A DNA stretch of 64,000 bases, taken from the NCBI GenBank assembly GCA_964393975.1, contig CAYMVO010000005.1:192-64191 (forward strand), read 5' to 3'. Below, one piece after another: positions 3,679-59,398 of the stretch. The position numbers and the translations under genes are program-made. Positions within the stretch are counted from its first letter, which is position 1; each line of letters starts with the position of its first letter. The DNA is from an uncultured Lachnospiraceae bacterium (GTDB taxonomy: Bacteria > Bacillota > Clostridia > Christensenellales > UBA1242). The notes under the pieces are model-generated. The model had not been told where the DNA came from. It worked only from the letters and a program-made list of their open reading frames with translations, and ran no database searches.

Positions 3679-3707
3679 ACAAACCTCAAAAAAATATTTA
3701 TTTTTAA

Positions 3708-3737
3708 TAGTTTGTAAAATTTTGCAAATTTTTATAC
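3708..3737 (-). promoter_or_regulatory. Forespore-type (sigma F/G-like) promoter candidate for the ger operon
   Basis: Minus strand reads GTATA-N18-CAAACTA, compared with the remembered consensus G[AC]AT[AG]-N17/18-CAT[AT][AC]TA. It lies about 30 nt upstream of ATG 3678. Confidence 0.35.
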
Positions 3738-3765
3738 AAAAAAAGAGACTCATTTGAAAAGTCTC
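3738..3765 (-). terminator. Intrinsic terminator after the CvpA-like gene
   Basis: Minus strand reads GAGACT-N9-AGTCTC followed by a T7 run. Confidence 0.6.
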
Positions 3766-3793
3766 ATTTCACACATTTAAGCATTAGTCGCTC

Positions 3794-4771
3794 CTAAGCC
3801 TGCTCAGCTAAGCCACCACTCTCACCCGACTCGCTACCACTAGTACTCGCGTCACCTGACGCACCTGCATCGCCACCAGTAGATGCGCTTGAGTCACCAG
3901 AACCACTTCCCGATTCGCTACCGCTACCAGATTCGCTACCGCTCGTATCACCACCAGTAGACTCACTACTATCACCAGAATTGCCGTTTTTGAGTAGTTT
4001 GTCTATCAAGGAATTAAAGTCTATATCTCCTATAACCTCTTGCACCTTATCAGCGACAATATAATATCCATATTTAGCGATAACAGTGTTGTTCATTATC
4101 TGAGGAACAGGTAATTTTGCGTAACTTAAGAAAGTGCCTATAATAAATACTATTACGACAATAACCGCACCTTTTGCAAGTCCAAGCAAAGAACCTAGCA
4201 ATCTATCGAGCCCACTCTTACCGCCTCGTTTGTCATTTGCACTATCAAACAACTTGCCTAGCAAGAAAACAATGAGTTTTACACCGAAAAACAAAATAAC
4301 ACCAGTCAACACTACGCCGAGTATCATACCTATACTAGCACTGACCGCATCTAGTGCAGTGACATTCTTAGTCAAATCAATACCGTTTACCACGTTATCA
4401 AGAAAACTCTTTATAAATCCCATATTATCCGAATTACTAATAGCATCTAATACCGTAGCCCTTACCTCTTCCGAGTTGACCACCTCTTTAAACGCATCAC
4501 CGCCACAAAGCTTTGCCCCAAGCCCACTAAACCATGATCCGATATGTATAATAGGATCTAAAAAATTTGCCACCGGTCTAGCGCAGAAAATAGCCACTGC
4601 CAAAGCGCCTACAGTACTGACAAGCTTTAAAATAGCATCAATAAATCCTGACACAAATCCTTTAAGTGTGAAAACTAGTATTATAACCGCAAGAACCACC
4701 TCAAGGATTATGGCGATAGTCTTTGCGGTACCCTCGCTCATAGCTTCACATAACATTAGTGTGTTAAACAT
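3794..4771 (-). CDS. cvpA: CvpA-family membrane protein with a long Ser/Gly/Asp-rich C-terminal tail
   Basis: 325 aa with four or more TM segments. N-terminal LKGFVSGFIDAILKLVSTVGALAVAIF pattern matches the CvpA family. The tail is GNSGDSSESTGGDTSGSESGSGSESGSGSGDSSASTGGDAGASGDASTSGSESGESGG (about 3797..3990). Confidence 0.55.
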   Translation of the reverse strand: MFNTLMLCEAMSEGTAKTIAIILEVVLAVIILVFTLKGFVSGFIDAILKLVSTVGALAVAIFCARPVANFLDPIIHIGSWFSGLGAKLCGGDAFKEVVNSEEVRATVLDAISNSDNMGFIKSFLDNVVNGIDLTKNVTALDAVSASIGMILGVVLTGVILFFGVKLIVFLLGKLFDSANDKRGGKSGLDRLLGSLLGLAKGAVIVVIVFIIGTFLSYAKLPVPQIMNNTVIAKYGYYIVADKVQEVIGDIDFNSLIDKLLKNGNSGDSSESTGGDTSGSESGSGSESGSGSGDSSASTGGDAGASGDASTSGSESGESGGLAEQA

Positions 4772-32204: not shown

Positions 32205-32762
32205 TTATTCAGCTATTCTTCTTACCATAACATAGGCAGTCAAGTTTGTTCCAGTCAATGTTAACGTTTCACCCGCTTGCGCTATGCTAATGTAGAACGT
32301 ATCCCCCGCATCCAATCTTAATATCGTTTGCGCAGTGGTTATACCTTCAGTCGTGACTGGTATACGAGTGTTACTCACCAAAGAACCGCCCTCCCAAATA
32401 CCTATGTCAGCTTGTGCGGTTGATGGTCCTACGCCGTATATTATCTCATACACACCGGCATTTGCTACAGTGATATTACCCGAAGAATCTATTGTCACGC
32501 CATTTGCTTCGTTGCTCGCAGTCAAATTGATAGGTATCGCAGTGTCATTGACAGTTTGTGCCACTACTGAGTATCCGTAACCAAACTCAGCCACCCCTGT
32601 CGCACCAGTAGGTCCCGTAGGTCCCGTCGCACCCGTCGCACCCGTCACCCCTGTCGCTCCAGTAGCACCCGTCGCACCCGTCACCCCCGCAAGGCACACT
32701 CTCCTACACTCGTAACCACACGGTTCGCAATACGACCGCCTACAAATATTAAAACACGCCAT
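32205..32762 (-). CDS. Collagen-like (GxT repeat) protein with a Cys-rich N-terminus and a beta-rich C-terminal domain, BclA-like exosporium/spore-surface architecture
   Basis: 185 aa. The N-terminus MACFNICRRSYCEPCGYECRRVC has 7 Cys. About 10 triplets follow (GVT GAT GAT GAT GVT GAT GAT GPT GPT GAT), then roughly 125 aa of globular sequence. Confidence 0.65.
   Translation of the reverse strand: MACFNICRRSYCEPCGYECRRVCLAGVTGATGATGATGVTGATGATGPTGPTGATGVAEFGYGYSVVAQTVNDTAIPINLTASNEANGVTIDSSGNITVANAGVYEIIYGVGPSTAQADIGIWEGGSLVSNTRIPVTTEGITTAQTILRLDAGDTFYISIAQAGETLTLTGTNLTAYVMVRRIAE
32589..32687 (-). repeat. GxT-encoding 9-bp-periodic collagen-like repeat tract
   Basis: On the plus strand, reiterated GTCGCACCC / GTAGGTCCC units. 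Confidence 0.7.
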
Positions 32763-32971: not shown

Positions 32972-33211
32972 TTAGCAGTTACCTTTACCGCAACCAAGCC
33001 CGCACACATTAAAGATTAAGTACATCACTATAATAGTGCACCAATCTATGTTGCAATTACAGCAGTTAGTCAAAAGCAACAAGATTAATATGATAGTACA
33101 ACAGTCCATTTCACAGCCAAAACCCTTGAAACCACCGCAATTTCTATCATTGTCACAACCTTGATTGCAACCATAGTTTCCGCAACCACAGTTTCCAAAT
33201 AATCCGCTCAT
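32972..33211 (-). CDS. Small, extremely Cys-rich protein (about 15 Cys in 79 aa) with two hydrophobic stretches
   Basis: MSGLFGNCGCGNYGCNQGCDNDRNCGGFKGFGCEMDCC...CGLGCGKGNC. RBS is AGGAGGA. It lies immediately upstream of the collagen-like gene on the same strand. Confidence 0.6.
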   Translation of the reverse strand: MSGLFGNCGCGNYGCNQGCDNDRNCGGFKGFGCEMDCCTIILILLLLTNCCNCNIDWCTIIVMYLIFNVCGLGCGKGNC

Positions 33212-34762: not shown

Positions 34763-34809
34763 CTCACCTTAAAGCCCACTTTTCAATCACCTAATACATA
34801 GCCCAGCCT

Positions 34810-35108
34810 TTAAAAAACACTACCCCACATCATATTGGGTAGATACGAAAAGTGCTATCGCTAAAACCAACGCATATTAAAATTACATTCAGCAATAGGA
34901 TATAAAACACAAATGCAAATGTCAACCACGCTTTAGGGGACGCACCTTCGCGGGATCACCCTACACAAATATACTGTTTGTCATTAAAAAAAATTATACA
35001 AAGTACTTGACCATTTTCTAGTCGACACCAGCGCAAAGACCACTTGCGGTCGAGCGCGATAGCGTTAGTCTATATCCCCGCCCTATATTACAACACCACC
35101 TTTTAAAA
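34810..35108 (-). repeat. Direct repeat copy 1 (299 bp) flanking the AbiE module
   Basis: Collinear with 36910..37209. By eye there is one substitution (34865 A vs 36966 G) and one A-run length difference. Confidence 0.9.
34812..34986 (-). ncRNA. Candidate ~175-nt structured sRNA inside repeat copy 1 (family not recognised)
   Basis: Minus strand has TATAAT (34998..34993), GC-rich stems (TAGGG..CCCTA with inner CGC-GAAGGT-GCG), and a terminal hairpin CTACCC-N11-GGGTAG followed by TGTTTTTT. Confidence 0.3.
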
Positions 35109-35151
35109 CACAATAAAACACACCGCTATGTATCGTTGTACACATCGGTGT
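35109..35151 (-). terminator. Terminator candidate after abiEii
   Basis: Minus strand reads ACACCG-N20-CGGTGT followed by GTTTTATTGTGTTTT. Confidence 0.4.
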
Positions 35152-35251
35152 ATTTAAAAGTATATGTTTTATTTTTTATAGTATATTAAGCTAAACGATA
35201 GCGTTAGACTGACTTACTAAATCAACACCATTTCTTATAAAATATAAAACT

Positions 35252-36790: not shown

Positions 36791-36819
36791 ATTATACTCA
36801 TTTCAACATTTTTTGTCAA
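36791..36819 (-). promoter_or_regulatory. Consensus sigma-A promoter of the abiE operon
   Basis: Minus strand reads TTGACA (36819..36814), a 17-nt spacer, then TATAAT (36796..36791). Confidence 0.6.
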
Positions 36820-36909: not shown

Positions 36910-37209
36910 TTAAAAAAACACTACCCCACATCATATTGGGTAGATACGAAAAGTGCTATCGCTAAGACCAACGCATATTAAAATTACATTCAGCAATAGG
37001 ATATAAAACACAAATGCAAATGTCAACCACGCTTTAGGGGACGCACCTTCGCGGGATCACCCTACACAAATATACTGTTTGTCATTAAAAAAAATTATAC
37101 AAAGTACTTGACCATTTTCTAGTCGACACCAGCGCAAAGACCACTTGCGGTCGAGCGCGATAGCGTTAGTCTATATCCCCGCCCTATATTACAACACCAC
37201 CTTTTAAAA
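36910..37209 (-). repeat. Direct repeat copy 2 (300 bp) flanking the AbiE module
   Basis: See copy 1. Confidence 0.9.
36912..37087 (-). ncRNA. Candidate structured sRNA inside repeat copy 2
   Basis: Same elements as copy 1. TATAAT at 37099..37094 and the terminator hairpin at about 36920..36943. Confidence 0.3.
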
Positions 37210-37212
37210 AGA

Positions 37213-37248
37213 ATATAAAAAACAAACCGCTTTGCATTACGCATAGCG
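37213..37248 (-). terminator. Terminator candidate after the 282-aa secreted-protein gene
   Basis: Minus strand reads CGCTATGC-GTAAT-GCAAAGCG (one mismatch) followed by GTTTGTTTTTT. Confidence 0.45.
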
Positions 37249-37331
37249 ATTTGTATAAATGATATATTTAATTAGATATAGCACATCAAACCTTGCGACC
37301 GCAACCGCAACGCAAGTGATTTCTTCACATC

Positions 37332-38180
37332 TTATACAAAGCCAGCATACAGGGTAAAGCTACTAGTCACCTTAGTACTAAAACTATATATTGTACTACA
37401 GTTACTATCAGTGTACCAACCAGTGAATGTATATCCTAATTTGTATGGATCAGCGGGCTTTTCCACTGTACCATTATTATTAAAGAAAGTCTGAGCGATA
37501 ATGGTGCTATTGTTATTTGTAACGAATGTCACTATATGACCATATTCGGGATCGGCGCCAAACGCCTCAGTGAAGATATTAGAGAGGTTACTTATACTCT
37601 TATCGGTAATATTTTTAGACTGTACAGCTTGCACTTCCGCCCTAAAAACGAGGTCGGTAGGAGCACTTATTTCACCATATAGACCGACTGCGCCTTTGTA
37701 TGTTACCGCCCCGCAAAAGGTCGTCGCGTTTGTGGTATTACTAGCGCTATATACAGTAGGTGTTGTCGTCCCATTACTAGTAGTCGCTAGATAATAGTAT
37801 CCATCTGTATGCTTATACCAACTACTAGTACTAATGTTAGTAGTATCAATGCCTTCATAGTTTACTGACAAAAGGAATTTCTTTACATCATCATTCGCTA
37901 AGTTATTTGACTTGAATACAAGTCTCGCTCTAACGTAGCAATCAGAGGCGCCAGTGTTTTGCTTAAACTTTATGCTATTCACCAACGTATCACCTCTAGC
38001 GACATTTGCCATAGAGTCTGTCATACCATCAAAGGTGACATCTAGACTAACCTTTAACACGCTAAGACTAGTCTCTTTGCTCGCCTTAAAACCCGCCCAC
38101 GCAAAAGTGACACCTATAACGGCGATACACACAAAAGCGACTAATAAAACGATAAGACTCTTATTTCTAAATCTTGTCAT
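37332..38180 (-). CDS. Secreted protein with a TasA/camelysin-style (SipW-type) N-terminal signal region and a C-terminal Listeria-Bacteroides (Flg_new) repeat
   Basis: Track start is 38189. ATG 38180 is better spaced from GGAGG. The signal h-region ends in GVTFAWAGFKAS. The C-terminus carries PADPYKLGYTFTGWYTDSN...FTLYAGF. Confidence 0.5.
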   Translation of the reverse strand: MTRFRNKSLIVLLVAFVCIAVIGVTFAWAGFKASKETSLSVLKVSLDVTFDGMTDSMANVARGDTLVNSIKFKQNTGASDCYVRARLVFKSNNLANDDVKKFLLSVNYEGIDTTNISTSSWYKHTDGYYYLATTSNGTTTPTVYSASNTTNATTFCGAVTYKGAVGLYGEISAPTDLVFRAEVQAVQSKNITDKSISNLSNIFTEAFGADPEYGHIVTFVTNNNSTIIAQTFFNNNGTVEKPADPYKLGYTFTGWYTDSNCSTIYSFSTKVTSSFTLYAGFV

Positions 38181-38223
38181 ATACTCCATACCTCCAGTAA
38201 ATACAATAGATACATTTTTACTT

Positions 38224-38296: not shown

Positions 38297-39046
38297 TCAA
38301 AACTCGCCTAATAAAAACTGTACTATACTAGGCACCACGAGTCCTGCGGTCTCAGCTCGCAAAATACGCGTCCCTAGTGAGATCGAAGTCGCACCGCGTG
38401 TGATGAGATTATTCGCCTCTTTTTCACTAAATCCGCCCTCACTACCTACTATGACCGCTACATTCTCACAACCTGACAAATCAATTTCGCTCAAATGCGT
38501 ACTATGCTCTAACTCACTAGCAAAAATGATTTTGTCATAATGCAAAACAATTTCGCCATTATTCGCCACCTCGCTAAGCGTATCTAATAGCGAAGAAAAA
38601 CTAATCGGTTCGCCCACCTCAATAGTACGAGTACGCCTACATTGTTTACACGCGTCCTTTGCTATGAGGTCATAGCGGTCTTTTTTGTGCGAAAGTTTTG
38701 CAGTAGCAAACTCACTCTCAAACGGCACGAGTCTTTTGACACCTATTTCTGTGAGCTTTGTTATCAAAAACTCAAACTTTTCACCCTTAAGACACGCTAC
38801 AAAAACAGTGACATTTGTCTTTGTCTCTTGCGGTGGGTATTCTATACTCATTACTCGACCTATGGTCTTGTCTTTCTCCACTCTTTCAATCGTGACATTT
38901 AGCGTACTACCATCATTTGGTAGACACACAATCATATCACCCGCCCTTAATCTAAGCACTCTTGATATATGTATATGCTCTTGTCCTGTAACGGTGATAG
39001 TCTCGCCAACGTTAGCGGTCATATCCACAAAAAAATATCTTTTCAT
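38297..39046 (-). CDS. rsmE: 16S rRNA (uracil1498-N3)-methyltransferase RsmE
   Basis: 249 aa with HISRVLRLRAGD, VGSEGGFSEKE and LGTRILRAETAG motifs. Confidence 0.8.
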   Translation of the reverse strand: MKRYFFVDMTANVGETITVTGQEHIHISRVLRLRAGDMIVCLPNDGSTLNVTIERVEKDKTIGRVMSIEYPPQETKTNVTVFVACLKGEKFEFLITKLTEIGVKRLVPFESEFATAKLSHKKDRYDLIAKDACKQCRRTRTIEVGEPISFSSLLDTLSEVANNGEIVLHYDKIIFASELEHSTHLSEIDLSGCENVAVIVGSEGGFSEKEANNLITRGATSISLGTRILRAETAGLVVPSIVQFLLGEF

Positions 39047-45766: not shown

Positions 45767-48700
45767 TTAATTTTTTATAACTATACACGTGTAAGTCACA
45801 CTAGAACCGTTTAATTTATCGGTAATAGTTATCTTGCACTCCATATTACTTGAAATGCCCGTAATCTTTAACACCCCAGTATTTTTATCGTACGTAAACT
45901 CACCTTTAGCAATATCGCATACCACATCAAAATCAGTAGGAGCAATATCGGCACCTCTTGCAAGTTTTATAATCTCATTAATACTCATACCACCTTCAGT
46001 GTTTAATGAATAATTAAGCACATTAGGTGTCTCATCTATCAACAAAACTTTTCTTGCATTTACTGGAACATTCACCACAAAACTAGTAGTATCACCGCTC
46101 TTTTCCGCAGTTATGATAAATTCAATCGTAACAGTAGTCCCCGCAAGACTTTTGTTTGCCTTAAATGTATAAGTACCATCTTCATTTTTAACCATATCGT
46201 TATCTTTATCCAACCCACCATTTACTTTTATAGTTGTGCTAAAATTATTAGTAGTACTTGGTTTATTTAACCAAGAATTGTAAATGCTATATGAAATATT
46301 TACAGTTCCGTTTTCCTCAATAGCCTCCGCAGTGCAAGTATCATTAGCAGGTTTACCACCTATCATAATATCTTTCACCTCATAGGTAGCAAGGCAATTC
46401 ACATCCATATACCCTACATAAGTTTTATTATCTTTAGACAAAGTAATCTTTAATATTTGTATTGAATTATTAAATATATCCTTTACAGTAAGCTTGCTAC
46501 CAGTAATCGTTGCAATACAACTAGTCGCATCAATCAATTTTCCGTCCTTGTCTACTAATTCAAACTTATAAACAGTCGCATCAATCAATTTTCCGTCCTT
46601 ATCTAAGAACGTAGCCAAAAATGAAGTTAGGTCTATAGATTGACTAGAATATAGAGCCAGCGCTTCACCTTTTCGCTCAAAGTCGTACACGATTTCACTC
46701 ACACTTACGACACAACTATTTGTATAAACATTTTTAGTACCTTTGTAAGAGTAATTAAATACTATCCTGTATTTATTACCTGCAGAACCATCTAAGAACC
46801 TTATATCACTGCCACTTATTGTGACATTTTCATCATCTTCACCGGTCTCAATATTCTCACAACTTATAGTCACACCGTCGATGCCATCAGTTTCGCTAAA
46901 TTCAGTTCCAAACTTTAAAGTACTCGTAATATCTATACCAGATTGTGTCACCTTGATCAATTCTTTTGCATCGATAGTTGAGTCTGGTTCAATATATCTC
47001 ATACTCTCGGTAACCGAAATATCATAAGACGCCTTAATCAATACAACAATATACCCCAAATAAACAGTATCATTGTACTCTACTTTCACTGTCACTTGGA
47101 TATAAGTATCCGCCAAAACATCATTCGCATAGATGGTTTTAGGTGCATTAGTATTTATTACAGCTTCCGCGCCTTCATATTGCAATGAATAATCGACAAG
47201 TGTTCCTTGCGATAAAATATCCAATTCATCGATCATAGCGACCTCATCTTTTACTAGAACGTATGATCCTATTTGACTAAGCGCAACATATCTAGATGCG
47301 TTTGACTCTATCTCAATAATCTCGCTTGATGGCGTAAAGACAAATTCTTGTGCTTTTATACCGTTGGTCTCAAGATTTGTTATGTATTCCAAAGTGTTAC
47401 CTACAACATCGGTCAATACATATCTTACCACATAGACTAGTCTACCCTCCTCATCAACATTATAAGTAATACTATTAATACTTGGCTTTATTGATAATTT
47501 CATTGTAGACGCGCTAGCAGTATTATCTTCTGTCTTGGTCTCTGATGCAATGTCAAGTTCGGTGCTACTATTCAAATCGACCTTTATATCATTAATTGTA
47601 AGCGTCATTCCACTATTGACAGCATCAAATACTTCTTTTGCCCCAATATCAAATGAGGTATTAGCAGTCAAATTGATATAATTACTATTCGTCGAAGTCT
47701 CTTCGACAGTAAATGCGGGTTTCTCAATAGGTAGTATGATAAATGTAATAGGTGTACTTTGCTCATTATATTTGATAGTGACCGTTATATCTGTAACATT
47801 TAACAAGCTCTTAGTCGTTAAAATACCATTCTCATATTCTACCCCATTCTTATTCTTATCATTAATAGTTACTTCGTAATCCTCTAATTTACTCGATGTA
47901 AATATATTATTGCTATATTGTAGCTCATATACCTCTATTAATTTAGAAATATTATATTCCGTATTACTATTTAACACCACACCATTAGGTAAGTAATATT
48001 TATACCAGCTATTTTCGATCGCGTCGTACTTTCCATCGACGCTATTAGTCGTGTATGTTTCACCCCAACCATCAGTATAAGTGGTAGTCGTTATGGTAAA
48101 CACGCCAACACTATTAGTTTTTGACTCTTTCGTAAAGTTTGTGTTTGTATAGCCTGTAGGTGTTACAACAATATTGATAGTCGCATCCAAAATCACATTG
48201 CCAAATAAAGTTGCCTTTAGAGTCGTGATTTTGTTTTTACCATAGATACTCAAAGGTGAAGTAATTTTATACTTTTCAAATGCTACCTTTTTTCCATTTG
48301 AAAGCTCATATATAATATTATCATTGCTATAATAGCCACCTATCCAGTTGGTCAACTTATCCTTTAAAGACATATCACTAATACCTGCGTCAAGTGTTAT
48401 AGTCGTTTGTGCTTTTGTATAGTTAAATACAAAATCTAAATATACAGTATACCATTCATTATTGTCTTTATCATAACACTCAAAACGATAATATAAATCA
48501 CTTTCTTTAAATGCGCTTACAGTCGTAGACTGTTTTGTTTTCAAATATTGATTTAAAACATCTCTAGCATCAGACTCATTGATACTACTTGCGGTTTTTA
48601 ATTTATTCAACGCATCGATATCATTATTATCATCCACAGTCACTGTAATAAATTTATCACTATTGACCTTTTTACTTAAATCAGCATTAATATATACATA

Positions 48701-51700
48701 CAACAAATTGTTTGTAATAGTAATCTCATTACTGGCTTCAACTTTTGTAATAAAATTAATTGTAATAACATACGAATATGCCTTTTTTACAAATGATATA
48801 GATTTACTATCTGATGAAGATACAATCTCTGCATTAGCGACAAATACAGATACATCGTTTAAATCAACACTTTCACCTAATTCACTCTTTATCGCATCAA
48901 ACACATCATTAATAGAGACTTGAGTAGAACCACTAAACAATTTATTTATCTTATTTATATCATAAGATTCTAACACATTGTCTTTTTCAATTATTTTCTT
49001 AGTCGTAGCAGGGTTTATGATAAAGTGAATGATGCAATTTTTATTATTTTCCAACTTACCACTACTAATAGGGGCGTATTCTAAGTAAAGATATGCCTCT
49101 GTTACGTTATCATTAATAGTCACATATTCATTTCCATTTTCTACAGAATACTCGCAATCATTACATACTATTGTATTATTATCTATCGTCCCCTTTATTA
49201 TTTCTTTCAAATCGATCTTTCTATTTGCGTTATCAAACTTATAAATACTAGTGTTACTTATCGCAGATACTTTTTGCGACAAACTCAAGGTCGATAATTC
49301 TTTTTCAGGAATAACAAATGTATACAATTTACTTTGCTCACCACTTTTAAATGTCACGCTAATAGTTTGTTCTTTCAAAACAAGATAGTATTTACCATCA
49401 GACAAACTCCCCGACTCTTCTCGTTCGATCGTATATACACCACCATTACCATTAATAGTCTCACTATCCACTTTGACCTCGACATCAAAGTCGGTAAATG
49501 CACTAAAGTCCAACTCAAACTCACGATCATTTATCTCTTTTAGACAATCACCTAATGTTTCGAAAGTCGGAAAAGTGCTAGGAAATTCTATTTCTACAAA
49601 CGCTACCAAAGGGCGATTACTACTACTATCAGTACCGGTACATTTTACCCAAACCTCTCCACCATTTTTGTTTGAGCATACAACATCACACGCACCAGTA
49701 CCATCCTCCTCTATCGTGACATCGCTTATACCGCTAACAATGCTGTAGCTATTTGCTCTTATTGATTTGCTACCAACCGTATAAGTCACCCCAAAATACA
49801 ACCTATTAAGAGTATATATACTATTTATTTTATAGCTAAGCTCATACTTATCCTTGACGATATAATACTCCCCATCTATTTCATAAATGTAGCCAACCTT
49901 ATCAAAAACGCCTTTCTCATCCTCCTGTGTGACATTTGTTGATTCCACACCTCCGCTAGGTTTGTATATCGTCAAACTTTTAGTATAAGTAAATGGTTCA
50001 CCTTTTGAGACAAATCCCGCTTTAGTGTAAATCTCCGTCATACTTTCGCTACTCGTTTTATTAACGGTAATAGAGAAAGCGTGCGTGAATATACGTTCAC
50101 CATACTTTAACTTAGCGACTAAACCGTAAGTCATATCTTTCAACGCACAATCTATTGTTAATTTATTATTTTTAAATTTAACATTTGTGCTATCAGAGTA
50201 AATTTTTTCAATTTTCAAATCATAAGAGCGACCTTGCATAGAAGACAGTGTAAAAGTAGGAGTAATATTCACATTAGAAGAATACTCATTATCAATATTA
50301 TCACTAATGCTAAAATCATTTCTTAGCATTACATGTATGGTAAGTGTAAATGTTTTTCCATTTTTCAAAGTGTATGTTTTTACGTAATCATAACCTTTAG
50401 TGTTGTTATCCACTGCGCCCTTATAACACAAAAACACACCACCTTTATAATAATCACTATTCTCAGTCTCTTTTGCACTATTATAAAATTTTTCATCTAA
50501 GAAATTTTCCAAATCTACACTATCACCCTCAGACACGCTAAGTTCCGCGCCGTTATTAGTCTCACTAATAACATTTACACCGGAAGGTATAGTATACGTC
50601 AAAGGAGTTATTGTAACCTTTACATTCTTAACACACTTTACGCCTAGTCCAGTAATATTTAAAACGATATCAAAAGACGTTGATATAGTTTCACTTCCTC
50701 TAAGATTCTCATCTACAGATATAGTCCATTTATTATTAGTCTTTTCAATATTTAGATAACCATTAGATAATATGTCAACAGTATATGATGTTTCAGTAAC
50801 ATTTGTAAAACTTAAATAATACGCATCGTTCTTGTTATTAAGAATAGAGATTTGCGAACCACTCATTAGCTCAATCGTGCTAACATCTTCATTACCTTTC
50901 CACAAAGAAACACTATATGTTGTAGTCTCAGTTGCTTGAGTAACCGCTACGAGATCAAATACGACAAGGTTCATTGTGTTATTTAGTGTATAGGTTATGC
51001 TTACATGTACTCTAAATCCTTCAACGGCATTAAATATACTTAGTTTACCACTTGACGTCAAACTCAAATATTCAATTTTAACATTTTTAGAATCAGTTTT
51101 GGATATACTAACAGTTTTATTATTTTCAGAATCAGTTTTAGATATACTAACAGTGCCTATTTCACTAGATAAATTATCATATAATACACAATCAATTTTG
51201 TATGAATCCTCTTTCAAACCGTCTGGTTTCTTGATCGCATTAGAAATCAAATCGAAAGTACCATTCCCGCCCGTATCTAATACGAGATCAAATCTAGACG
51301 CGACTGCACTATAAACACCGCTAGGTTCTACAAGGATACGACCAATAGCGTAATACTTACCACCCACACAAAGTTGTATTTGAGATTCAACGGTTTGTAG
51401 TACATTAGCTCTAGTAATTTTATTATTTTCACCTAAAGTAACCCTTTTGTCCAAACATTTAAACGATATTGTGCTATTATCATCGAACCCTTCAATAGTA
51501 CCAAAATCACTCAATACGAGAGTATCATTCACTTTTTTTGTAACCAATGTTTTGTTATGCACAAATAATGCTTTTTCACCTACAATTCTAAAAGCAAGTG
51601 ATAGTTTATCAATATCATCACCTTTTGATTTAATCTTAATTACACAATCAACAATAACAATGTCACCGACTGCACTATTGCTAAAATCTATAACGCAGTT

Positions 51701-54700
51701 TTGATTAATGGTAGGTTTTTGAGCGTTGTTTTTACCTTGACTATCTACCGCACTAATCACACTAAAGTCATAAATCAAGCCTTCAGTCTCAAATAATGGA
51801 TTATTACGAATAGTTGATATATAATCTTTCAAAGCAAGTTTGTCACCTACATAAGCAGACTCTATACCATTGATATTATCGCTCGCTGAAAAATTGAACT
51901 GAATACTTTTCCTTACAATCACGGTAGTAAAACCAAAATACTCTTTGCCTAACTCATCGGTTAGTTTTACAAGCAGATAGACCTCGGTGTCTGCAAACAC
52001 ATCTTTGTTAATCTTCAAGCAACCATTCTCAATAGTTGCAATACCACTATTATCACCGAACACACTCACAAAGGTGGTAGTACCATCTATCTTTACTTTT
52101 GTAGTCTCACCGTTTTCAGTCTTTTCTATGTAGAACTCACCATTTATGGTATCCAAATCTAAATCTTTGCCCGCACTTGTTTTACGCAAGATTTCATTTG
52201 CTGGCGAATAGTGATAGACATTATCATTAGTCTCTTTTAACATTAATAGTAGAACGACCTTACCACTACCGTAAGTAATAGTCATTGAATAAATATTCTC
52301 GTAAGTACCTACTTGGTTTATTGTAACATATAAACCGCTTACGCCATCAACAGGATATCCATATTTTGTTGTTTGAATATATTGACTGATGTCAAAATTG
52401 TACTTATCACTACCGATAGTCAATATTTTATCTTCTCGATTGAGTGGGGAATCTATCGTTTCATTATTTACCACAGCACTTCTCAAGACACCACTACTAG
52501 AGGTAGTATCCTCAGTGGTCGTCGTCTCAATCTTTTCTAATAAAATATAATCGCTACTACTCGCCTTACTCTCTATACTATAATCGGGCATAACCGTAAC
52601 ACTCGTTATACCCGTATAAATAGTTTTATCAACAGTATATGTAACCAATATTCTAACGGTCGTTGTCTCAGATATACTAATACCAGCTTTTACTTTTAAA
52701 GTATTACTCACCACCTCTACTTTGTCTGTATTGTCTAGCAAACTAAACGCACTCGTCCCGCCAACAATCTTTGTACCATCACTACCAGAAAAACTATCTC
52801 CAAGATAATTCAAATCTAATGATTGACTAGCATACATTTTGTTAAGGTTTGTATTCACCTCAAAGGAATAGTTTTTCTTTATCTTGTAGTATACAGTACA
52901 AACTGTAACATTGCCAAGTTTTATATAAACCTGACTAACCATATCTTCACTAGCCATTACATTACTAAAGTCAACAATATATTTATCATTTTCAGAAGTA
53001 ATAGTAACATCCTCGTTACTATCCTCAATAGTGTATCCTTTGCTTAAAATCTTACCAAGATCAACATCGCCCTCGGCGTTTGTTAGCGTGCTTGATATAT
53101 TAGGATCTATAAAGTCTATACTGAGATAATTGGTCAATTCAAAAGTTGTCACGTCATCCTCAAACTCTGCAGGCTTTACCTCACTAGTATCACTACTAAT
53201 ATAGTTAACATTAGGTAAGATCGCTATAAAGTAAGCACATACCTCACTACCATTATTTTTTACACTTACCTTCTTTTTAGTGATTTTACTTACTGCTTTT
53301 GGAGTAAATACCCCATTTGTAACCTTTTCGTCCTCTACTTCAATAGTAAATACCGTAGCCTTTGAAAGAGATATTGTTTGATATCCACCGTCCTTGTACT
53401 CTTGAAGAATAATGTACATATCATTATTAGTATCAAAGACATTATAATCTTCAAGACTATAAACGCTATCTTGTGCAACATTTTCACTGATTGCTTTATT
53501 GGTCACGCAAATATAGTTTGGTAGTATCGCCACATAATAATTTTCATACTTAATGTAATCAGTAAAAGTAATCTTGACCTTTATTATCAAATCAACTCTT
53601 GTAGCAACATCACTCTCTAGAGTAAGAGTAAACCCATCAGTAAGCTCCTCTATTTTAAGCAAACTACTTGTGTCACCATTTGTATCTTTGCAAGATAAAC
53701 TCGTTATCTCTCCACCACCAAATTGTGTTTGGTTCAAACTATAAGCTTTAGTACCACCTGTTTTGAGGAGAGTAACTTTACTATTCACAGACTGATTTAA
53801 AATCAAAGGGTTATCCTTGCTATTTACCTCACTATTTGCATTATAGAATACTGCAGGGGTAGGGTAAAGCATAAACGTATACTCAGCATTAGCAATTGCA
53901 GTGCCATTTACACAAGCCGTAACAACAAATTTAGTACCATCGATATCCGCCAAATTAGTTAATTGAAAACCAACTTCACCTGTCGTCGTAGTGGTGGTAG
54001 TGACCACTTTGGTATAATCTACTTTATTTTCTTTATTTTCTCCATTAAATGCTTCATAAGTGTAAGATAAGTTATCAACTTTGCTACCATCTATTTTAAC
54101 AACGGTCAAGTAATCTTCAATCTTATAAATAGGATTAGTAGCGCCATCATAGGTTAAATTGGTCATATCTTCTAATTTATTAATAACGTATCCACTCGTA
54201 AAGTATATATTGTATGTAATGTCTTTAAATTGTTCTTTTGAATTATAATAAGAGGTATAAAATCCGATAGATATCTTAGCACGTTCTATAGCTCCACTAT
54301 ACTTCAAAACGTTATCTTCAATATAACAAGTAACATCACTCTTTTGGATAATATACATATACAAACCGCTTGTATAATCTCTACTACCTTTAGTAGCACT
54401 CACATTCGTACCGAATATATCAAGCCTTTGTTCGTTCCCACCTCCACTTGCATCCAAGCACTCAAAAGTCTTATCTGTTTCTATAATATTAGAAGGATTT
54501 GAGTATTGTAAATTAATCTTGACATTATCAATATTATTAACGGTGCTATTATCCATTATGTATACAGAGTAAATATCAAACAATCCGCCCTCGCTAGTAA
54601 TCGCTATCCAAATAAGTGTAGGTATTTTGATATCACTTGTAGCACTGATAGATATATTAGTAGCATTTTTGGATACATCAAGTGAAAGTTTTGTGCTATC

Positions 54701-57700
54701 AGACCAAGAAGTATCGTCATAGTCTAATTCTAGCACTCTAAATGAAAGTTTGTTATTGATATTAGTTTTTTCGCTTTCAACAATATTTACCGCTTCAATG
54801 TATTCACTCAAATCAACACTCTCACCCGATTCCATTTCTAAGTATCCCAAAGTATCAAATTTGTCGCTAGTCAAGGTCGCAATATTTAAGCTATTAAACG
54901 AATTTATCATAGCGTCTTTATCTAGCCCCAACCCGACTAATTTATTTTCCTCAATCGGATAAGTCAAAGTCAATTTTTGTCCCGCGCTCAAACTAAAGTA
55001 CGCACAAAGTGGTTCGACACCCTCCAAGCCTTCTGGAGTAGCCTGTATCTTAAGCTTCACTGTATCAGCTACTTGCGTAAACTTGATATATCCACCCTCT
55101 AAATAAGCAAATGGCACTTCGGTATATTCTGACACCCCAGCACCTAAGTCATCTATCCTATATGCTTTGATAGATAGTTCTAGATCAGATTGCCCATTAT
55201 ACGTCTTTGCACTATATACTTCATTTAACGCTACTAAGCTATTACAATTAACAGAATAAGGATTGCTTTCATTATTAAATCCATCATTAGTCTTGTAATA
55301 ATCACCCTCACCGACATCTTGTAATACTTTGACCTCTAATATTATTCCTGTAGCAATATTATTAATAAACACTTCAATACTTGCAGTATCATCCCCTGAA
55401 TAATTTAGACCTGTTAAATATGCACTCTTACTACCTTTTTCATATAATACGACGTAATATTTTGATTGGTTAGGTTCGCCAAAACTAATCGCATCTTTTA
55501 AAGTGCTTGAATTTGCAATTGTTAAACAATCATACAACGTTTTGGTCTCATTTTTATGTATAATAAACCTACCATCTTCATCCTTATTCTCATTGATTAT
55601 ACTCAACTCATAATATGGTATCACAGTTATCACTCTATCAAACACATATTTAGTAGAATAAGCAGTGTATGTCATTTTTACATTTATAACCAACTCGGTA
55701 AATACCTTGCTAGATGAAATTGTTAAAGATTTTTCAGTCGCATCATAGGTAGCGATTTGGACCTCTTGCGTTATCTCAAAAGTAATCGCTGGTCTTGCAA
55801 CAAAATTGCCGGCAAAGTCTTTTGCAAACATCAATCCCTCATTTGTTTCGCTTTCTTTTAGTAGTTTAACAACCTTGTCTTCACTACCCAACTCAACCGT
55901 ATAACTTGACGAAGTATCAATGTCATATTCACCTGCTAAATAAACACGTCTAGTAACGCCACCAACGTCTTCTTCAATGTATTTAGTCAAAATATCAGGC
56001 ACCAATAGTACTTCAAAACTCTTTGAGAACACTTCAGCCCCGTTTTCATCTTTCTCATAGACACGTATAGTCGCTAAAGTAGGTGAAGTCACAGCCTTAC
56101 CGCTAAAGTTATTATAGGTCATAATGCCTGTAGAGCTACCTATAGTCACATAATTTGATTGGTCTACGCGATAATATATATTACTGATATTATTAGTCGA
56201 TGAACCGTTAACTGCAGTGACATTTATATACGTACCCTTAAATGTAACCTTGTTATCAGATTTGTGTACAAAGGTGATGTAGTCTACACCATTCCACCTA
56301 CTAACCACTGCTTGATTTTGAGTAGAAGATGACGCACTATCGGAATTGATGTATTCATTATAAGCTTTAGATAAATCTAGTTCTACTTTTAGATTATTCT
56401 TCAAGGCAAACCTTACATATAAAACATCATCAAACTCACTTGTGAGAACAATAGTCACAATTTCTGAAGATGCCACATTTTTAACAAACTTAACATCTCC
56501 TCTTTTTGTGAGTCCATTCTCGCCGTCTACATTTGCTATTATAGCGCTATTAGTAGTGGTTAAAAATGAAAGCTCTACTAGACCACTATTTTCTTTGCCA
56601 TTATAGTAGTAACCTACCATATCCAAAACATTCGCAGTCTGTCCGTAGTAAACCTCTTTGCTATAGGTCGCGCCATTTTGATAAAGCTCGCCATCCTTGA
56701 CATCAATGCCTTCATTGCTTAACGCACTTGTGGTTTTATAACTACCTGTCAAAGCCCTTAATATAATAGTAATCTCATCATATATTTGGTCATTTTCAGC
56801 GCTCACTGCGCGAATGGTGACGCCAGTATCTTTGGTCGCTTTTTTAAAGTCCAACATCTGTTTACCATTAATAGTCTTAATAGCAATATACTCAGCATCG
56901 CTACTCACAAGATTATAGTTTGTATTTTGTCCATCTATAGCGACTGAATAATCAAACTCACCTCCCTCGTTCTCTGAGCCATTTACATAATAAATTTCTT
57001 TCCAAACAACAGTAGAATTTGCAACACTTGCTCTATATACAAAAGTCTTTTTCGTCGTTTGATCTTCACTCTTCACATTTAATTTTACACTCTTAACACT
57101 TGTGTCTTTAATAGCATATTCTGCGCTACTACCGACACAATTATTTTCACCATAGTACACCTCAAAGGTGACATGTTTACCATAATCAGCCAAAGAACTC
57201 TTTGGTATAGAAAAATCTATACAATAATAATCATCCAAAGTCTTATACAAAGCACTATCTAGTTGAATTTGTGCTGATTTAGCAGTTTGTTTATCCAAAT
57301 ACTTTATACTAATCTCATCTATTACTCTAGCCAAAACATTGATATCAACATCTTCGCCATTATATACAGGTCTTATATAGAGTTTGTATTCGTTGTTTTC
57401 CAAAAGAGTGTAGTCTACTACATCCTCAATTGACTCATTTTTTTCTTCCACAATACGCACAGCCACTTCTTTTAAAATCGTTTGAACATCCAATTTTAAG
57501 TATGTATATTTGTATGTGTAAGTCCCTGATTGAGCATATTGTATTTCATTACCTTCGTAATCGGTTTGAACTAAAACAGCATAAATATTCACCTCCACAT
57601 CGCGAAGCATAGTAAGTATACCGCTTGCATAGGTTTGCCCGTCGTATTCTCCACCAGCAATTAAAACGCCGTAAATATTACGCTCCAATAAGTATGGGAC

Positions 57701-59398
57701 CTTTTGAGCGTCAGTTAATGATGTAAAATCAATCTTTGTACTTAAATCAGCAAGTCCACTATCAAACTCATCCTCACTTGTGCTACAAACAGCATAAAAT
57801 TTGATCAAATCATAAGTAGGAGTAGCACTATTTTTAGTAACATTTTTGATGTAATTATTTAGATTGATGGTTTTAGAGTTTTCCGGATCTATTGTAACAC
57901 TAAGCACACTCTTTGAGTTATCGTCTTTATTTATAGAAATCTCTACATTATCCGTTTTAGAAGTCCCTTCCGTATAGGTAATATATTCGGTCTCAACAAT
58001 ACCCACCTTAAAAGAGAAATCTTTTGATATGACTTTACCATCATTAGGATTTACAATGTTTAGAGTAATTTTAAATAAATCACTCATATTGTCTTTTATT
58101 GTTAATGTGTAATAATACTCCTTTTGATCGTCGCTTGCAGTCTCCCACTTATTATCCATTATCGGTCTTAGATATTCATTACCCAAATCATCGGTCAAAA
58201 CATCAGCTCCAATCTCTAAAACATCATTTTCATCATCACCTAAATTTGTAGTCAAATAGATATCCTTAATCTTGTCAAACATATCTTTATACGACATACC
58301 CGTTGCGGTGTTAGGGTTGACAGTAATATCAAGATTTATACCATTTTCTTTTGCTAGTTCCTCATCAGTCTTATTTGTCCTTAAATACAACTTAAATGTT
58401 TGTTTGTAAATAACACTGATTTGATCCACTTCGCTAGTAGTAGGATAGTTAATAGAACCAATGCTATCAATATCTATCTCGCAGACATTATAGATTTGCT
58501 CCTTAACCACTTTCATACGACTCAGCTTCTCGGTCTCAGTCTCTTGAGTAACAATCTTTTCTTGCTCCTTATACGTATCGAAAGCATACGCCACGACTTT
58601 AAACCTACCCGTCTTTAAGACCTTGATTTTAGTCTTTTCTTCATTTAACCATTTAGCAGTCTTGACGGAGTCATTATTCACATAGATAGGATTTTCCACA
58701 TCTATCCAAGTATTTCCCACCCCTGGTTGCTCAAACTCAAAATACAACTTGTATATGTATTGTTTGTTCGCTTTTGAAACAATAGGTGAACCTTCGCTTA
58801 CGGCACTAGGATTTACACTTTTGCTAGGTAAAAATGTTGGTGTATATAAATCAATTACTTGGTTTACATGTAAAGTCTCACTAGTATTACTAGCGTTAAT
58901 TGAGATATCCGTTACTGGTATATCAATAAACACTTGACAGGTGTCCACACCATATAAACCGCCATTCGCTATAGCAGTAATTGTCGTAGCACCTCCATAA
59001 GGCAACCCACTTGCAGTCTTTGGTATCAACACTTTGATAGTTTCCCCGATTTGAGCGGTCTTACGCTCCAAGCGAACTATAGAAGAATCCGCAACAGACA
59101 AATCTACATCTTTTACGGTTACATTATCAGGTTCCGCCGTTATTTTTATCTCAAAGTAGTCAATAATCTTTGGCTTGCCGTCCTCACCTAACACTATATC
59201 CCCGTTTTCATCATACTCGTAAATGTCAGGTTCGTATAGAGTCTTTTCAAAATGAATCGCTTTTGGCGTCACTACTATAGGATCAAAAGCACCTGTAAAA
59301 TACATTGTTCCAATTGTTATAGCTATCACGCCGACAAACGAACTTAAAATAATACTTATAGTCATTATAAGTGACTTTTTTAGACCGATATTTTTCAT
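45767..59398 (-). CDS. Giant (4543 aa) N-terminally anchored, beta-rich surface protein; domains not recognisable by eye (some Big_2/Ig-like looking segments)
   Basis: A single uninterrupted 13.6-kb ORF with RBS GAGGAG 5 nt before the ATG. The N-terminus MKNIGLKKSLIMTISIILSSFVGVIAITIGTMYFTGAF is a signal anchor. The sequence is T/N/S/V/Y/D-rich with no long exact internal repeats and no C-terminal LPxTG. Confidence 0.85.
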   Translation of the reverse strand: MKNIGLKKSLIMTISIILSSFVGVIAITIGTMYFTGAFDPIVVTPKAIHFEKTLYEPDIYEYDENGDIVLGEDGKPKIIDYFEIKITAEPDNVTVKDVDLSVADSSIVRLERKTAQIGETIKVLIPKTASGLPYGGATTITAIANGGLYGVDTCQVFIDIPVTDISINASNTSETLHVNQVIDLYTPTFLPSKSVNPSAVSEGSPIVSKANKQYIYKLYFEFEQPGVGNTWIDVENPIYVNNDSVKTAKWLNEEKTKIKVLKTGRFKVVAYAFDTYKEQEKIVTQETETEKLSRMKVVKEQIYNVCEIDIDSIGSINYPTTSEVDQISVIYKQTFKLYLRTNKTDEELAKENGINLDITVNPNTATGMSYKDMFDKIKDIYLTTNLGDDENDVLEIGADVLTDDLGNEYLRPIMDNKWETASDDQKEYYYTLTIKDNMSDLFKITLNIVNPNDGKVISKDFSFKVGIVETEYITYTEGTSKTDNVEISINKDDNSKSVLSVTIDPENSKTINLNNYIKNVTKNSATPTYDLIKFYAVCSTSEDEFDSGLADLSTKIDFTSLTDAQKVPYLLERNIYGVLIAGGEYDGQTYASGILTMLRDVEVNIYAVLVQTDYEGNEIQYAQSGTYTYKYTYLKLDVQTILKEVAVRIVEEKNESIEDVVDYTLLENNEYKLYIRPVYNGEDVDINVLARVIDEISIKYLDKQTAKSAQIQLDSALYKTLDDYYCIDFSIPKSSLADYGKHVTFEVYYGENNCVGSSAEYAIKDTSVKSVKLNVKSEDQTTKKTFVYRASVANSTVVWKEIYYVNGSENEGGEFDYSVAIDGQNTNYNLVSSDAEYIAIKTINGKQMLDFKKATKDTGVTIRAVSAENDQIYDEITIILRALTGSYKTTSALSNEGIDVKDGELYQNGATYSKEVYYGQTANVLDMVGYYYNGKENSGLVELSFLTTTNSAIIANVDGENGLTKRGDVKFVKNVASSEIVTIVLTSEFDDVLYVRFALKNNLKVELDLSKAYNEYINSDSASSSTQNQAVVSRWNGVDYITFVHKSDNKVTFKGTYINVTAVNGSSTNNISNIYYRVDQSNYVTIGSSTGIMTYNNFSGKAVTSPTLATIRVYEKDENGAEVFSKSFEVLLVPDILTKYIEEDVGGVTRRVYLAGEYDIDTSSSYTVELGSEDKVVKLLKESETNEGLMFAKDFAGNFVARPAITFEITQEVQIATYDATEKSLTISSSKVFTELVINVKMTYTAYSTKYVFDRVITVIPYYELSIINENKDEDGRFIIHKNETKTLYDCLTIANSSTLKDAISFGEPNQSKYYVVLYEKGSKSAYLTGLNYSGDDTASIEVFINNIATGIILEVKVLQDVGEGDYYKTNDGFNNESNPYSVNCNSLVALNEVYSAKTYNGQSDLELSIKAYRIDDLGAGVSEYTEVPFAYLEGGYIKFTQVADTVKLKIQATPEGLEGVEPLCAYFSLSAGQKLTLTYPIEENKLVGLGLDKDAMINSFNSLNIATLTSDKFDTLGYLEMESGESVDLSEYIEAVNIVESEKTNINNKLSFRVLELDYDDTSWSDSTKLSLDVSKNATNISISATSDIKIPTLIWIAITSEGGLFDIYSVYIMDNSTVNNIDNVKINLQYSNPSNIIETDKTFECLDASGGGNEQRLDIFGTNVSATKGSRDYTSGLYMYIIQKSDVTCYIEDNVLKYSGAIERAKISIGFYTSYYNSKEQFKDITYNIYFTSGYVINKLEDMTNLTYDGATNPIYKIEDYLTVVKIDGSKVDNLSYTYEAFNGENKENKVDYTKVVTTTTTTTGEVGFQLTNLADIDGTKFVVTACVNGTAIANAEYTFMLYPTPAVFYNANSEVNSKDNPLILNQSVNSKVTLLKTGGTKAYSLNQTQFGGGEITSLSCKDTNGDTSSLLKIEELTDGFTLTLESDVATRVDLIIKVKITFTDYIKYENYYVAILPNYICVTNKAISENVAQDSVYSLEDYNVFDTNNDMYIILQEYKDGGYQTISLSKATVFTIEVEDEKVTNGVFTPKAVSKITKKKVSVKNNGSEVCAYFIAILPNVNYISSDTSEVKPAEFEDDVTTFELTNYLSIDFIDPNISSTLTNAEGDVDLGKILSKGYTIEDSNEDVTITSENDKYIVDFSNVMASEDMVSQVYIKLGNVTVCTVYYKIKKNYSFEVNTNLNKMYASQSLDLNYLGDSFSGSDGTKIVGGTSAFSLLDNTDKVEVVSNTLKVKAGISISETTTVRILVTYTVDKTIYTGITSVTVMPDYSIESKASSSDYILLEKIETTTTEDTTSSSGVLRSAVVNNETIDSPLNREDKILTIGSDKYNFDISQYIQTTKYGYPVDGVSGLYVTINQVGTYENIYSMTITYGSGKVVLLLMLKETNDNVYHYSPANEILRKTSAGKDLDLDTINGEFYIEKTENGETTKVKIDGTTTFVSVFGDNSGIATIENGCLKINKDVFADTEVYLLVKLTDELGKEYFGFTTVIVRKSIQFNFSASDNINGIESAYVGDKLALKDYISTIRNNPLFETEGLIYDFSVISAVDSQGKNNAQKPTINQNCVIDFSNSAVGDIVIVDCVIKIKSKGDDIDKLSLAFRIVGEKALFVHNKTLVTKKVNDTLVLSDFGTIEGFDDNSTISFKCLDKRVTLGENNKITRANVLQTVESQIQLCVGGKYYAIGRILVEPSGVYSAVASRFDLVLDTGGNGTFDLISNAIKKPDGLKEDSYKIDCVLYDNLSSEIGTVSISKTDSENNKTVSISKTDSKNVKIEYLSLTSSGKLSIFNAVEGFRVHVSITYTLNNTMNLVVFDLVAVTQATETTTYSVSLWKGNEDVSTIELMSGSQISILNNKNDAYYLSFTNVTETSYTVDILSNGYLNIEKTNNKWTISVDENLRGSETISTSFDIVLNITGLGVKCVKNVKVTITPLTYTIPSGVNVISETNNGAELSVSEGDSVDLENFLDEKFYNSAKETENSDYYKGGVFLCYKGAVDNNTKGYDYVKTYTLKNGKTFTLTIHVMLRNDFSISDNIDNEYSSNVNITPTFTLSSMQGRSYDLKIEKIYSDSTNVKFKNNKLTIDCALKDMTYGLVAKLKYGERIFTHAFSITVNKTSSESMTEIYTKAGFVSKGEPFTYTKSLTIYKPSGGVESTNVTQEDEKGVFDKVGYIYEIDGEYYIVKDKYELSYKINSIYTLNRLYFGVTYTVGSKSIRANSYSIVSGISDVTIEEDGTGACDVVCSNKNGGEVWVKCTGTDSSSNRPLVAFVEIEFPSTFPTFETLGDCLKEINDREFELDFSAFTDFDVEVKVDSETINGNGGVYTIEREESGSLSDGKYYLVLKEQTISVTFKSGEQSKLYTFVIPEKELSTLSLSQKVSAISNTSIYKFDNANRKIDLKEIIKGTIDNNTIVCNDCEYSVENGNEYVTINDNVTEAYLYLEYAPISSGKLENNKNCIIHFIINPATTKKIIEKDNVLESYDINKINKLFSGSTQVSINDVFDAIKSELGESVDLNDVSVFVANAEIVSSSDSKSISFVKKAYSYVITINFITKVEASNEITITNNLLYVYINADLSKKVNSDKFITVTVDDNNDIDALNKLKTASSINESDARDVLNQYLKTKQSTTVSAFKESDLYYRFECYDKDNNEWYTVYLDFVFNYTKAQTTITLDAGISDMSLKDKLTNWIGGYYSNDNIIYELSNGKKVAFEKYKITSPLSIYGKNKITTLKATLFGNVILDATINIVVTPTGYTNTNFTKESKTNSVGVFTITTTTYTDGWGETYTTNSVDGKYDAIENSWYKYYLPNGVVLNSNTEYNISKLIEVYELQYSNNIFTSSKLEDYEVTINDKNKNGVEYENGILTTKSLLNVTDITVTIKYNEQSTPITFIILPIEKPAFTVEETSTNSNYINLTANTSFDIGAKEVFDAVNSGMTLTINDIKVDLNSSTELDIASETKTEDNTASASTMKLSIKPSINSITYNVDEEGRLVYVVRYVLTDVVGNTLEYITNLETNGIKAQEFVFTPSSEIIEIESNASRYVALSQIGSYVLVKDEVAMIDELDILSQGTLVDYSLQYEGAEAVINTNAPKTIYANDVLADTYIQVTVKVEYNDTVYLGYIVVLIKASYDISVTESMRYIEPDSTIDAKELIKVTQSGIDITSTLKFGTEFSETDGIDGVTISCENIETGEDDENVTISGSDIRFLDGSAGNKYRIVFNYSYKGTKNVYTNSCVVSVSEIVYDFERKGEALALYSSQSIDLTSFLATFLDKDGKLIDATVYKFELVDKDGKLIDATSCIATITGSKLTVKDIFNNSIQILKITLSKDNKTYVGYMDVNCLATYEVKDIMIGGKPANDTCTAEAIEENGTVNISYSIYNSWLNKPSTTNNFSTTIKVNGGLDKDNDMVKNEDGTYTFKANKSLAGTTVTIEFIITAEKSGDTTSFVVNVPVNARKVLLIDETPNVLNYSLNTEGGMSINEIIKLARGADIAPTDFDVVCDIAKGEFTYDKNTGVLKITGISSNMECKITITDKLNGSSVTYTCIVIKN
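46523..46600 (-). repeat. In-frame 51-bp-period duplication inside the giant gene
   Basis: The 27-nt exact repeat AGTCGCATCAATCAATTTTCCGTCCTT starts at 46523 and 46574. At protein level it reads DKDGKLIDAT...DKDGKLIDAT. Confidence 0.8.
51084..51154 (-). repeat. In-frame 39-bp tandem duplication inside the giant gene
   Basis: AGAATCAGTTTTGGATATACTAACAGT and AGAATCAGTTTTAGATATACTAACAGT lie 39 nt apart. At protein level it reads VSISKTDSENNKT VSISKTDSKNVKI. Confidence 0.8.

Follow-up and report, generated by a model that had tools for sequence, protein, structure and literature searches.

The question raised by this locus, which belongs to an uncultured gut bacterium of the Clostridia near Christensenellales, is what kind of sequence stands, in two nearly identical copies of the same orientation, on either side of an AbiEi/AbiEii operon. 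The preliminary description read the repeated unit as a structured small RNA gene on the minus strand and took its duplication to be linked to the AbiE module. When we searched the window, by which we mean the whole 64-kb stretch of DNA analyzed, for repeats, we found a direct repeat of 300 nt whose copies were 99% identical and differed by one mismatch; the repeat search and blastn showed only these two copies within the window. The physical linkage was borne out, as the two copies bracket the low-GC AbiEi/AbiEii operon. The features of the locus are collected in Table 1.

Table 1. Features of the repeat locus and of the AbiE operon, in minus-strand order (positions of the window).
Feature	Position	Strand	Remarks
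RsmE gene	38297-39046	-	First in the local minus-strand order
Flg_new-repeat protein gene, 285 aa	37332-38189	-	After RsmE; ended by T1
Copy 2 leader, spacer S1 and T1	37210..37290	-	T1 stem 37254-37222, then T-run; ends the Flg_new gene
Unit copy 2	36910..37209	-	300 nt; upstream of AbiEi; 99% identical to copy 1
AbiE promoter, TTGACA-17-TATAAT	36791..36819	-	12/12; starts the block conserved in all AbiE relatives
AbiEi antitoxin/regulator, 201 aa	36148..36753	-	PADLOC AbiEi E 7e-56; weak DUF6088 match
AbiEii nucleotidyltransferase toxin, 299 aa	35252..36151	-	PF08843 E 3e-30; PADLOC AbiEii E 1e-74
Possible degenerate partial copy, unit nt 1-52	35193..35242	-	Directly after the AbiEii stop; holds the recurring 12-mer
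Copy 1 leader, spacer S2 and T2	35109..35190	-	T2 stem 35155-35116, then T-run; ends the AbiE operon
Unit copy 1	34809..35108	-	300 nt; downstream of AbiEii; direct repeat; GC 39%
Hairpin A, TCGAC-CGCAA-GTGGTCT-TTGCG-CTGGT-GTCGA	35053-35022	-	Copy 1; z -0.79; three variable positions in the loop
Promoter-like P1, TAGAAA-16-TATAAT	34993..35020	-	10/12; background frequency
Hairpin B, TAGGG...CCCTA, inner CGC/GCG	34934..34963	-	z -1.9; a G-to-A change breaks one pair in 5/9 copies
Promoter-like P2, TTGACA-17-TATCCT	34897..34925	-	10/12
Terminator-like 3′ end, 6-bp stem, 11-nt loop, then UGUUUUUU	34812..34842	-	-8.2 kcal/mol; z -1.23
ORF, 48 aa	34616-34762	+	Convergent; good ribosome-binding site
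NifS-like cysteine desulfurase	34496-33369	-	Beyond the 48-aa ORF

Read along the minus strand, the locus runs from RsmE through the Flg_new gene, its spacer with T1, copy 2, a spacer of ~90 nt, and the AbiE promoter to AbiEi and AbiEii, and then, after ~60 nt, through the spacer with T2, copy 1, and 46 nt to the 48-aa ORF and the NifS-like gene. Both repeat junctions were spanned by independent metagenome assemblies (L098, L099, and L101), which shows that the arrangement did not arise through misassembly of this contig. The GC content of the unit was 39%, compared with 26–27% in the adjoining spacers, 25% in the AbiE genes, 39–43% in host coding DNA, and 35% in the window. Thus, the unit is indeed richer in GC than the intergenic DNA around it, as had been proposed, and its composition is that of host coding DNA. 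The small ORF next to copy 1 is divergent from the NifS-like gene, and the pair is kept in the relatives L089 and L090 (NifS 89% and 60% identical), so that the ORF probably codes for a genuine small protein with a link to the cysteine desulfurase. Elsewhere on the minus strand of the window there were a 185-aa collagen-like protein whose G-x-T triplets are encoded by 9-nt tandem repeats (32205-32762, repeats at 32583-32689), which resembles a BclA-type exosporium protein, a very cysteine-rich ORF of 79 aa beside it (32972-33211), and a single ORF of 4543 aa (45767-59398), for which no Pfam match was on record in the related contig listing.

The repeats enclose a canonical AbiE pair with the defining features of such pairs: the toxin and antitoxin genes overlap by 4 nt and are preceded by a consensus promoter. 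It is a horizontally acquired, low-GC (25%) foreign cassette. Among its relatives, homology was confined to the stretch from the promoter (ACTATATTACTATTGACA...TATAAT) through the stop codon, corresponding to about 36850-35250 of the window. The shared block, which starts ~30 nt upstream of the promoter and is 76–87% identical at the nucleotide level in L093, L096, L097, L111, and L112, has no recognizable mobile-element ends; its promoter part was aligned across four contexts. AbiE relatives occurred in at least six unrelated genomic contexts; for six operons that were 76–79% identical, the contexts included an adjacent integrase and Bro-N, the interval between ftsZ and spoIIGA/sigE, the position after whiA, and the neighborhood of a tRNA. 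In these relatives one sees clearly an AbiE operon that moves as a bare block, from promoter to stop codon. Flanking direct repeats were rejected as a general property of AbiE cassettes, since L093, L096, and L097 have none. In L093 (and L094), 184-nt inverted repeats that are 95% identical (4143-4326 and 9223-9406 of L093) surround a 4.9-kb segment, which holds the AbiE operon and a Flg_new surface protein, lies a few kb from a tyrosine integrase, and may be invertible. The same locus has three tandem 21–22-nt repeats (CCTACATTGCGATTGCGCGC) just upstream of the AbiE promoter.

The preliminary description had also considered an RNA functionally tied to the nucleotidyltransferase toxin. The nhmmer and blastn searches showed that the unit was absent from all seven related AbiE operons (76–87% identical) in other contexts; none of L093 to L095, L096, L097, L111, and L112 has it. 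Further evidence came from a sister species in sample ERZ27279226, whose core genes are 81–83% identical at the nucleotide level. Its locus L089 keeps the pair of small ORF and NifS next to another upstream gene and has no unit. Its AbiE operon (87% nucleotide identity) stands at another location, in L096. There, a T1 homologue (87% over 46 nt; score 58, with shuffles reaching at most 36) directly precedes the AbiE promoter, and the unit is missing from both sides. Since the unit is missing from the other AbiE operons and from both matching positions in the sister species, it is not tied to the toxin.

No homologue of the unit was found outside one species-level lineage in any of the collections searched. 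When 112 fetched related loci were searched by nhmmer and blastn, only same-species copies were recovered. A distant blastn search of PLSDB plasmids and GenBank phages gave no match, and neither did exact-motif scans of IMG/VR with four unit segments and of the JGI metagenomes with two. The unit was absent also from 80 GTDB loci gathered via NifS synteny, but these are uninformative for it, because the nearest species representatives are only ~50% identical in NifS; as to RsmE orthologues, the contigs of the sister species were not long enough, and the remoter relatives were rearranged. A search of the literature on AbiE, direct repeats, and small RNA found nothing relevant. The distribution shows that the unit is neither ancestral to the host locus, as far as this is visible, nor a companion of AbiE.

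We then considered the unit as a lineage-specific small RNA gene that has a TAGAAA-16-TATAAT promoter, a transcript of ~175 nt, and a terminator and was duplicated with the AbiE insertion; its product could be a trans-acting sRNA or an antisense or insulating transcript. The layout of the unit speaks for such a gene, as an orphan promoter and a terminator stand in the classic arrangement between strong upstream terminators, in a block that exceeds the surrounding spacers in GC and has no coding potential. When the motifs were inspected one at a time, all were found where the preliminary description had placed them, among them hairpin A, hairpin B with its inner CGC/GCG pairs, and the TATAAT box (34998-34993). 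The TG said to precede this box is present, but it is displaced by one base from the extended -10 position. The CTACCC-N11-GGGTAG stem followed by TGTTTTTT exists as well, but as a terminator it is weak, and the terminator scan did not call it. The proposed pairing of GCGGGG with CCCGC does not hold, because GCGGGG lies upstream of the proposed promoter and cannot pair with CCCGC inside the proposed transcript. Moreover, promoter-like matches were at background frequency, with 26 observed in 3 kb compared with 19 ± 5 in shuffles. Thus, the motifs of the unit that resembled an RNA gene do not rise above background, although the promoter- and terminator-like motifs may still give rise to a short transcript.

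The ORFs of the unit extend to 31 codons with TTG or GTG starts and are not limited to stubs of seven codons, but the statement that none is credible stood. Stops occur throughout all six frames and nothing protein-like was seen, so that a pseudogene seems unlikely. The recurrence of a 12-nt piece of the unit outside copy 1 (35193-35204) was found as described, but alone it is at chance level (blastn E=2.3). It falls within a gapped local alignment of unit nt 1-52 with 35242-35193 that gave a borderline score of 38 (p about 0.02, 2000 shuffles) and begins exactly at unit nt 1. Tandem Repeats Finder (TRF) reported only trivial AT-rich repeats of 10–17 nt with scores ≤53, none of them inside the unit proper; the single nearby one (35104-35122) overlaps the 5′ boundary of the unit by 5 nt. 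The repeat search, too, showed no repeat family.

The evidence from structure did not favor an RNA gene. Rfam 15 gave no match at gathering thresholds in the whole window and, at E ≤ 10, nothing inside the unit in searches with 4 kb and with 421 nt; the only matches at this level were chance-level ones on the T2 hairpin, outside the unit. The unit belongs to no Rfam family. Its fold was no better than that of shuffles, whether taken over 300 nt (z -0.44), over the putative transcript of 175 nt (z -0.34), or for hairpin A, hairpin B, and the 3′ end separately (z -0.8, -1.9, and -1.2); for the opposite strand, z was -1.34.

Covariation was examined in an alignment of nine full-length unit variants from same-species contigs with a mean column identity of 96%, which gives low power. 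No covariation was seen in any of the 24 proposed pairs or of the 90 RNAalifold pairs, and there were no compensatory changes. The variants break two of the proposed pairs: the G148A change disrupts the stem of hairpin B in five of the nine copies, and a G-to-T change disrupts the TCGAC stem in one copy. In favor of a structure, the CGCAA/TTGCG stem of hairpin A was invariant and its three variable sites fell in the loop; in this small sample, such loop-confined variation is mildly compatible with a hairpin.

Comparison of strains pointed in the same direction. RsmE, Flg_new, S1/T1, two spacers, the AbiE operon, the small ORF, and NifS were 99.2–100% identical between near-clonal strains of the species, whereas unit copies at the same position were only 93–98.7% identical. 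The polymorphism of the unit exceeds that of the flanking non-coding DNA by a factor of 3 to 20. This is the opposite of what is expected of a constrained structured RNA. Two unit haplotypes could be distinguished, of which B carries a 13-nt AT-rich insertion, located inside the putative transcript, and several linked SNPs. The window has A at both positions, L098 and L099 have A upstream and B downstream, and L101 has B upstream; either haplotype thus occurs at either position. The mosaic looks like that of repeats which exchange sequence by gene conversion, although part of it could come from short-read assemblers that mis-joined or chimerized the repeat copies. In L099, an extra DUF6273 gene, fused to or overlapping the end of a 307-aa Flg_new gene, stands immediately upstream of S1/T1 (2943-4740, vs 37317-38189 of the window), showing that the region upstream of the repeat is itself variable between strains.

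The claim of a structured small RNA gene was not upheld, since the unit has no Rfam match, no fold signal, no covariation, and no homologues beyond one species, and a putative unit RNA that is structured, conserved, or connected with AbiEii is not supported. With the layout on one side and, on the other, a weak terminator with an 11-nt loop, background-level promoters, an indel within the transcript, and absence from the sister species, we consider a lineage-specific small RNA gene unlikely.

The DNA upstream of the two copies was more informative as to their history. When the 120 nt upstream of each copy were compared, the two leaders were found to be colinear, with about 68% identity over about 75–80 nt (37290-37210 vs 35190-35109). 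The alignment score was 53, compared with a mean of 25.6 and a maximum of 44 in shuffles, none of 1000 of which reached 53. Each leader contains an intrinsic terminator that folded much better than shuffles (T1, -16.3 kcal/mol and z -4.47; T2, -17.9 kcal/mol and z -4.24), and T1 and T2 are true structured elements of the locus. By eye, a paired change seems to distinguish the two stems (AAAUC/GGUUU vs ACACC/GGUGU); if it holds, it would indicate that the terminators are real, selected RNA structures here. Both copies of the unit begin right after the T-run of the terminator. The rise in identity from about 68% to 99–100% falls precisely at TTTTAAAAGG, and similarity ends immediately past the T-run of the unit; the similarity of the downstream flanks was not significant (p 0.08). 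Tests of a junction motif that follows each T-run (TTTTAAWAG..TGG) and of x′ against L096 also fell short of significance (p 0.66 and 0.79).

Some small repeats were seen near T1. A perfect palindrome (TTGCGACCGCAA) lies at 37293-37304, just past the Flg_new stop and ~60 nt before T1, and in the sister species the same 13-mer precedes T1 by a comparable distance (L096, about 178-190); palindromes of this type numbered two in the window, with 0.05 expected. A REP-like family around TTGCGRYCGCAA was rejected, as it had just two matches in the window. In L096, a 25-nt direct repeat (GAATAAAAACCCNACCTTATA; 72-96 and 221-245, 149 nt apart) upstream of T1 surrounds a GTCATCCTGAGC...GAAGGATCTC motif and may be a small repeat element.

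The possibility exists that the core is a non-autonomous mobile or recombination module, inserted twice 3′ of T1 and T2 in a fixed orientation and bringing its own promoter- and terminator-like ends. The razor-sharp edges of the core against the ~68% identical leaders and the start of both copies directly past a terminator T-run agree with this, and L096, where T1 is followed by the AbiE promoter, resembles an empty site; the polymorphism and the shuffled haplotypes would fit an exchange with copies elsewhere in the genome. However, no terminal inverted repeats join the ends of the unit, the flanks (ATATTC/AATAGA and ATTGTG/AAAGGC) show no target-site duplication, and the Rfam search revealed no signature of a group II intron or another ribozyme in the unit. 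No transposase, reverse transcriptase, or recombinase is encoded nearby. The two copies in 64 kb were not joined by others in the 112 related loci, plasmids, phages, IMG/VR, or the JGI metagenomes. Nor does L096 represent a clean insertion, as ~6 nt and ~24–48 nt of extra flank also differ, and the T-runs that bound the unit could equally have mediated its deletion; the T1 homologue without a unit fits insertion and deletion between T-runs equally. A mobile module of this kind therefore appears improbable. More doubtful still is a core that is an undescribed small module, a non-autonomous mobile element or a lineage-specific sRNA gene, which would land or recombine directly 3′ of a particular terminator hairpin with a promoter and terminator of its own and, from its place on either side of the AbiE operon, would make this operon a portable, excisable cassette in uncultured gut Clostridia.

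It is very unlikely that the repeats are the attL and attR sites of an integrative island that targeted an RNA gene, as the preliminary description had suggested for the unit, and then decayed to the AbiE operon: foreign low-GC DNA is indeed flanked by direct repeats, but no integrase or recombinase lies beside the repeats or between them, where there are only AbiEi and AbiEii, the window contains no tRNA or tmRNA by ARAGORN and no Rfam RNA, the whole 300 nt including the promoter-upstream DNA is duplicated rather than the 3′ part of a gene, and the AbiE operon moves elsewhere without unit sequences.

The reading that we favor, and regard as somewhat probable, is that the unit is a non-coding, host-like direct repeat, an ordinary scar of recombination or duplication, which was placed on each side of the foreign AbiE cassette by single-crossover integration or by duplication and whose cores have since been exchanging sequence. 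An intergenic segment of host composition, made up of spacer, terminator, and unit, would have come to flank the cassette either when a circle with a copy of this segment integrated in the Campbell manner or through a local duplication within which the operon then landed. The repeat would accordingly consist of a 300-nt near-identical core and an older, diverged leader of ~80 nt with its intrinsic terminator. Later exchange between the cores, by gene conversion or ectopic recombination, would keep the copies alike within a genome and make them mosaic between strains. The sharp step from 99% to ~68% identity and the lost similarity at the right edge are not predicted by a simple old duplication, which would have to be supplemented by conversion restricted to the core or by a discrete insertion at a later time.

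Such an arrangement may have consequences for the operon. The terminators would insulate each side of the autoregulated toxin–antitoxin operon. With long direct repeats on both sides and a housekeeping region around it, the AbiE operon is in principle excisable or amplifiable by homologous recombination: RecA-dependent recombination could loop out or amplify the 1.8-kb cassette, and the addiction module would penalize its loss. Neither a solo unit nor a circular form was observed. If the core were instead a mobile module that seeks terminators, this would be relevant to the shuffling of defence cassettes, but the present evidence does not require this. More generally, the locus illustrates that a promoter, hairpins, and a terminator laid out in a GC-richer intergenic block are insufficient for calling a structured RNA; here, the informative signals were comparative, namely the absence of the unit from the sister species and from other AbiE operons and its greater variability than that of its flanks.

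Among known systems, AbiE is reportedly a type IV toxin–antitoxin and abortive infection system. It consists of the AbiEi regulator and AbiEii, a GTP-binding nucleotidyltransferase, whose MenT relatives act on the acceptor ends of tRNAs; to our knowledge, no RNA component has been described for it. The cargo analyzed here likewise consists of two genes, which overlap and stand behind a consensus promoter, and since the unit is absent from all seven related operon contexts examined, it does not represent a new RNA partner of AbiE.

Type III antitoxins (ToxI, AntiQ, and CptI) are short tandem arrays with units of ~34–36 nt that are read through into the toxin gene. The present locus resembles them in having non-coding DNA with a terminator immediately upstream of an abortive-infection toxin operon, but it lacks a tandem short-repeat array and the antitoxin of AbiE is a protein, and we rejected a ToxI-like antitoxin. 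Elements that target intergenic regions or terminators include BOX/RUP, Correia elements, REP/BIME, and class C group II introns. Like these, the unit is a small non-coding repeat beside terminators with promoter- and terminator-like motifs; in contrast to them, it has no terminal inverted repeats or target-site duplication, only two known copies, no detected intron domains, and no identified mobilizing enzyme. By the features tested, the unit does not qualify as a MITE, an att site in an RNA gene, or a type III antitoxin.

Long direct repeats flank cassettes after Campbell-type integration or segmental duplication and are later homogenized by gene conversion. The locus shares with these cases the host-like copies in the same orientation around compositionally foreign DNA, the exchange of alleles, and the lack of transposon ends; it differs in that neither a donor circle nor a pre-insertion allele was observed and in the step in identity at the edge of the core, from 99% to 68%, which is steeper than expected from simple models. 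By this comparison, the locus is best read as functioning in the manner of ordinary long direct repeats that enclose an integrated cassette.
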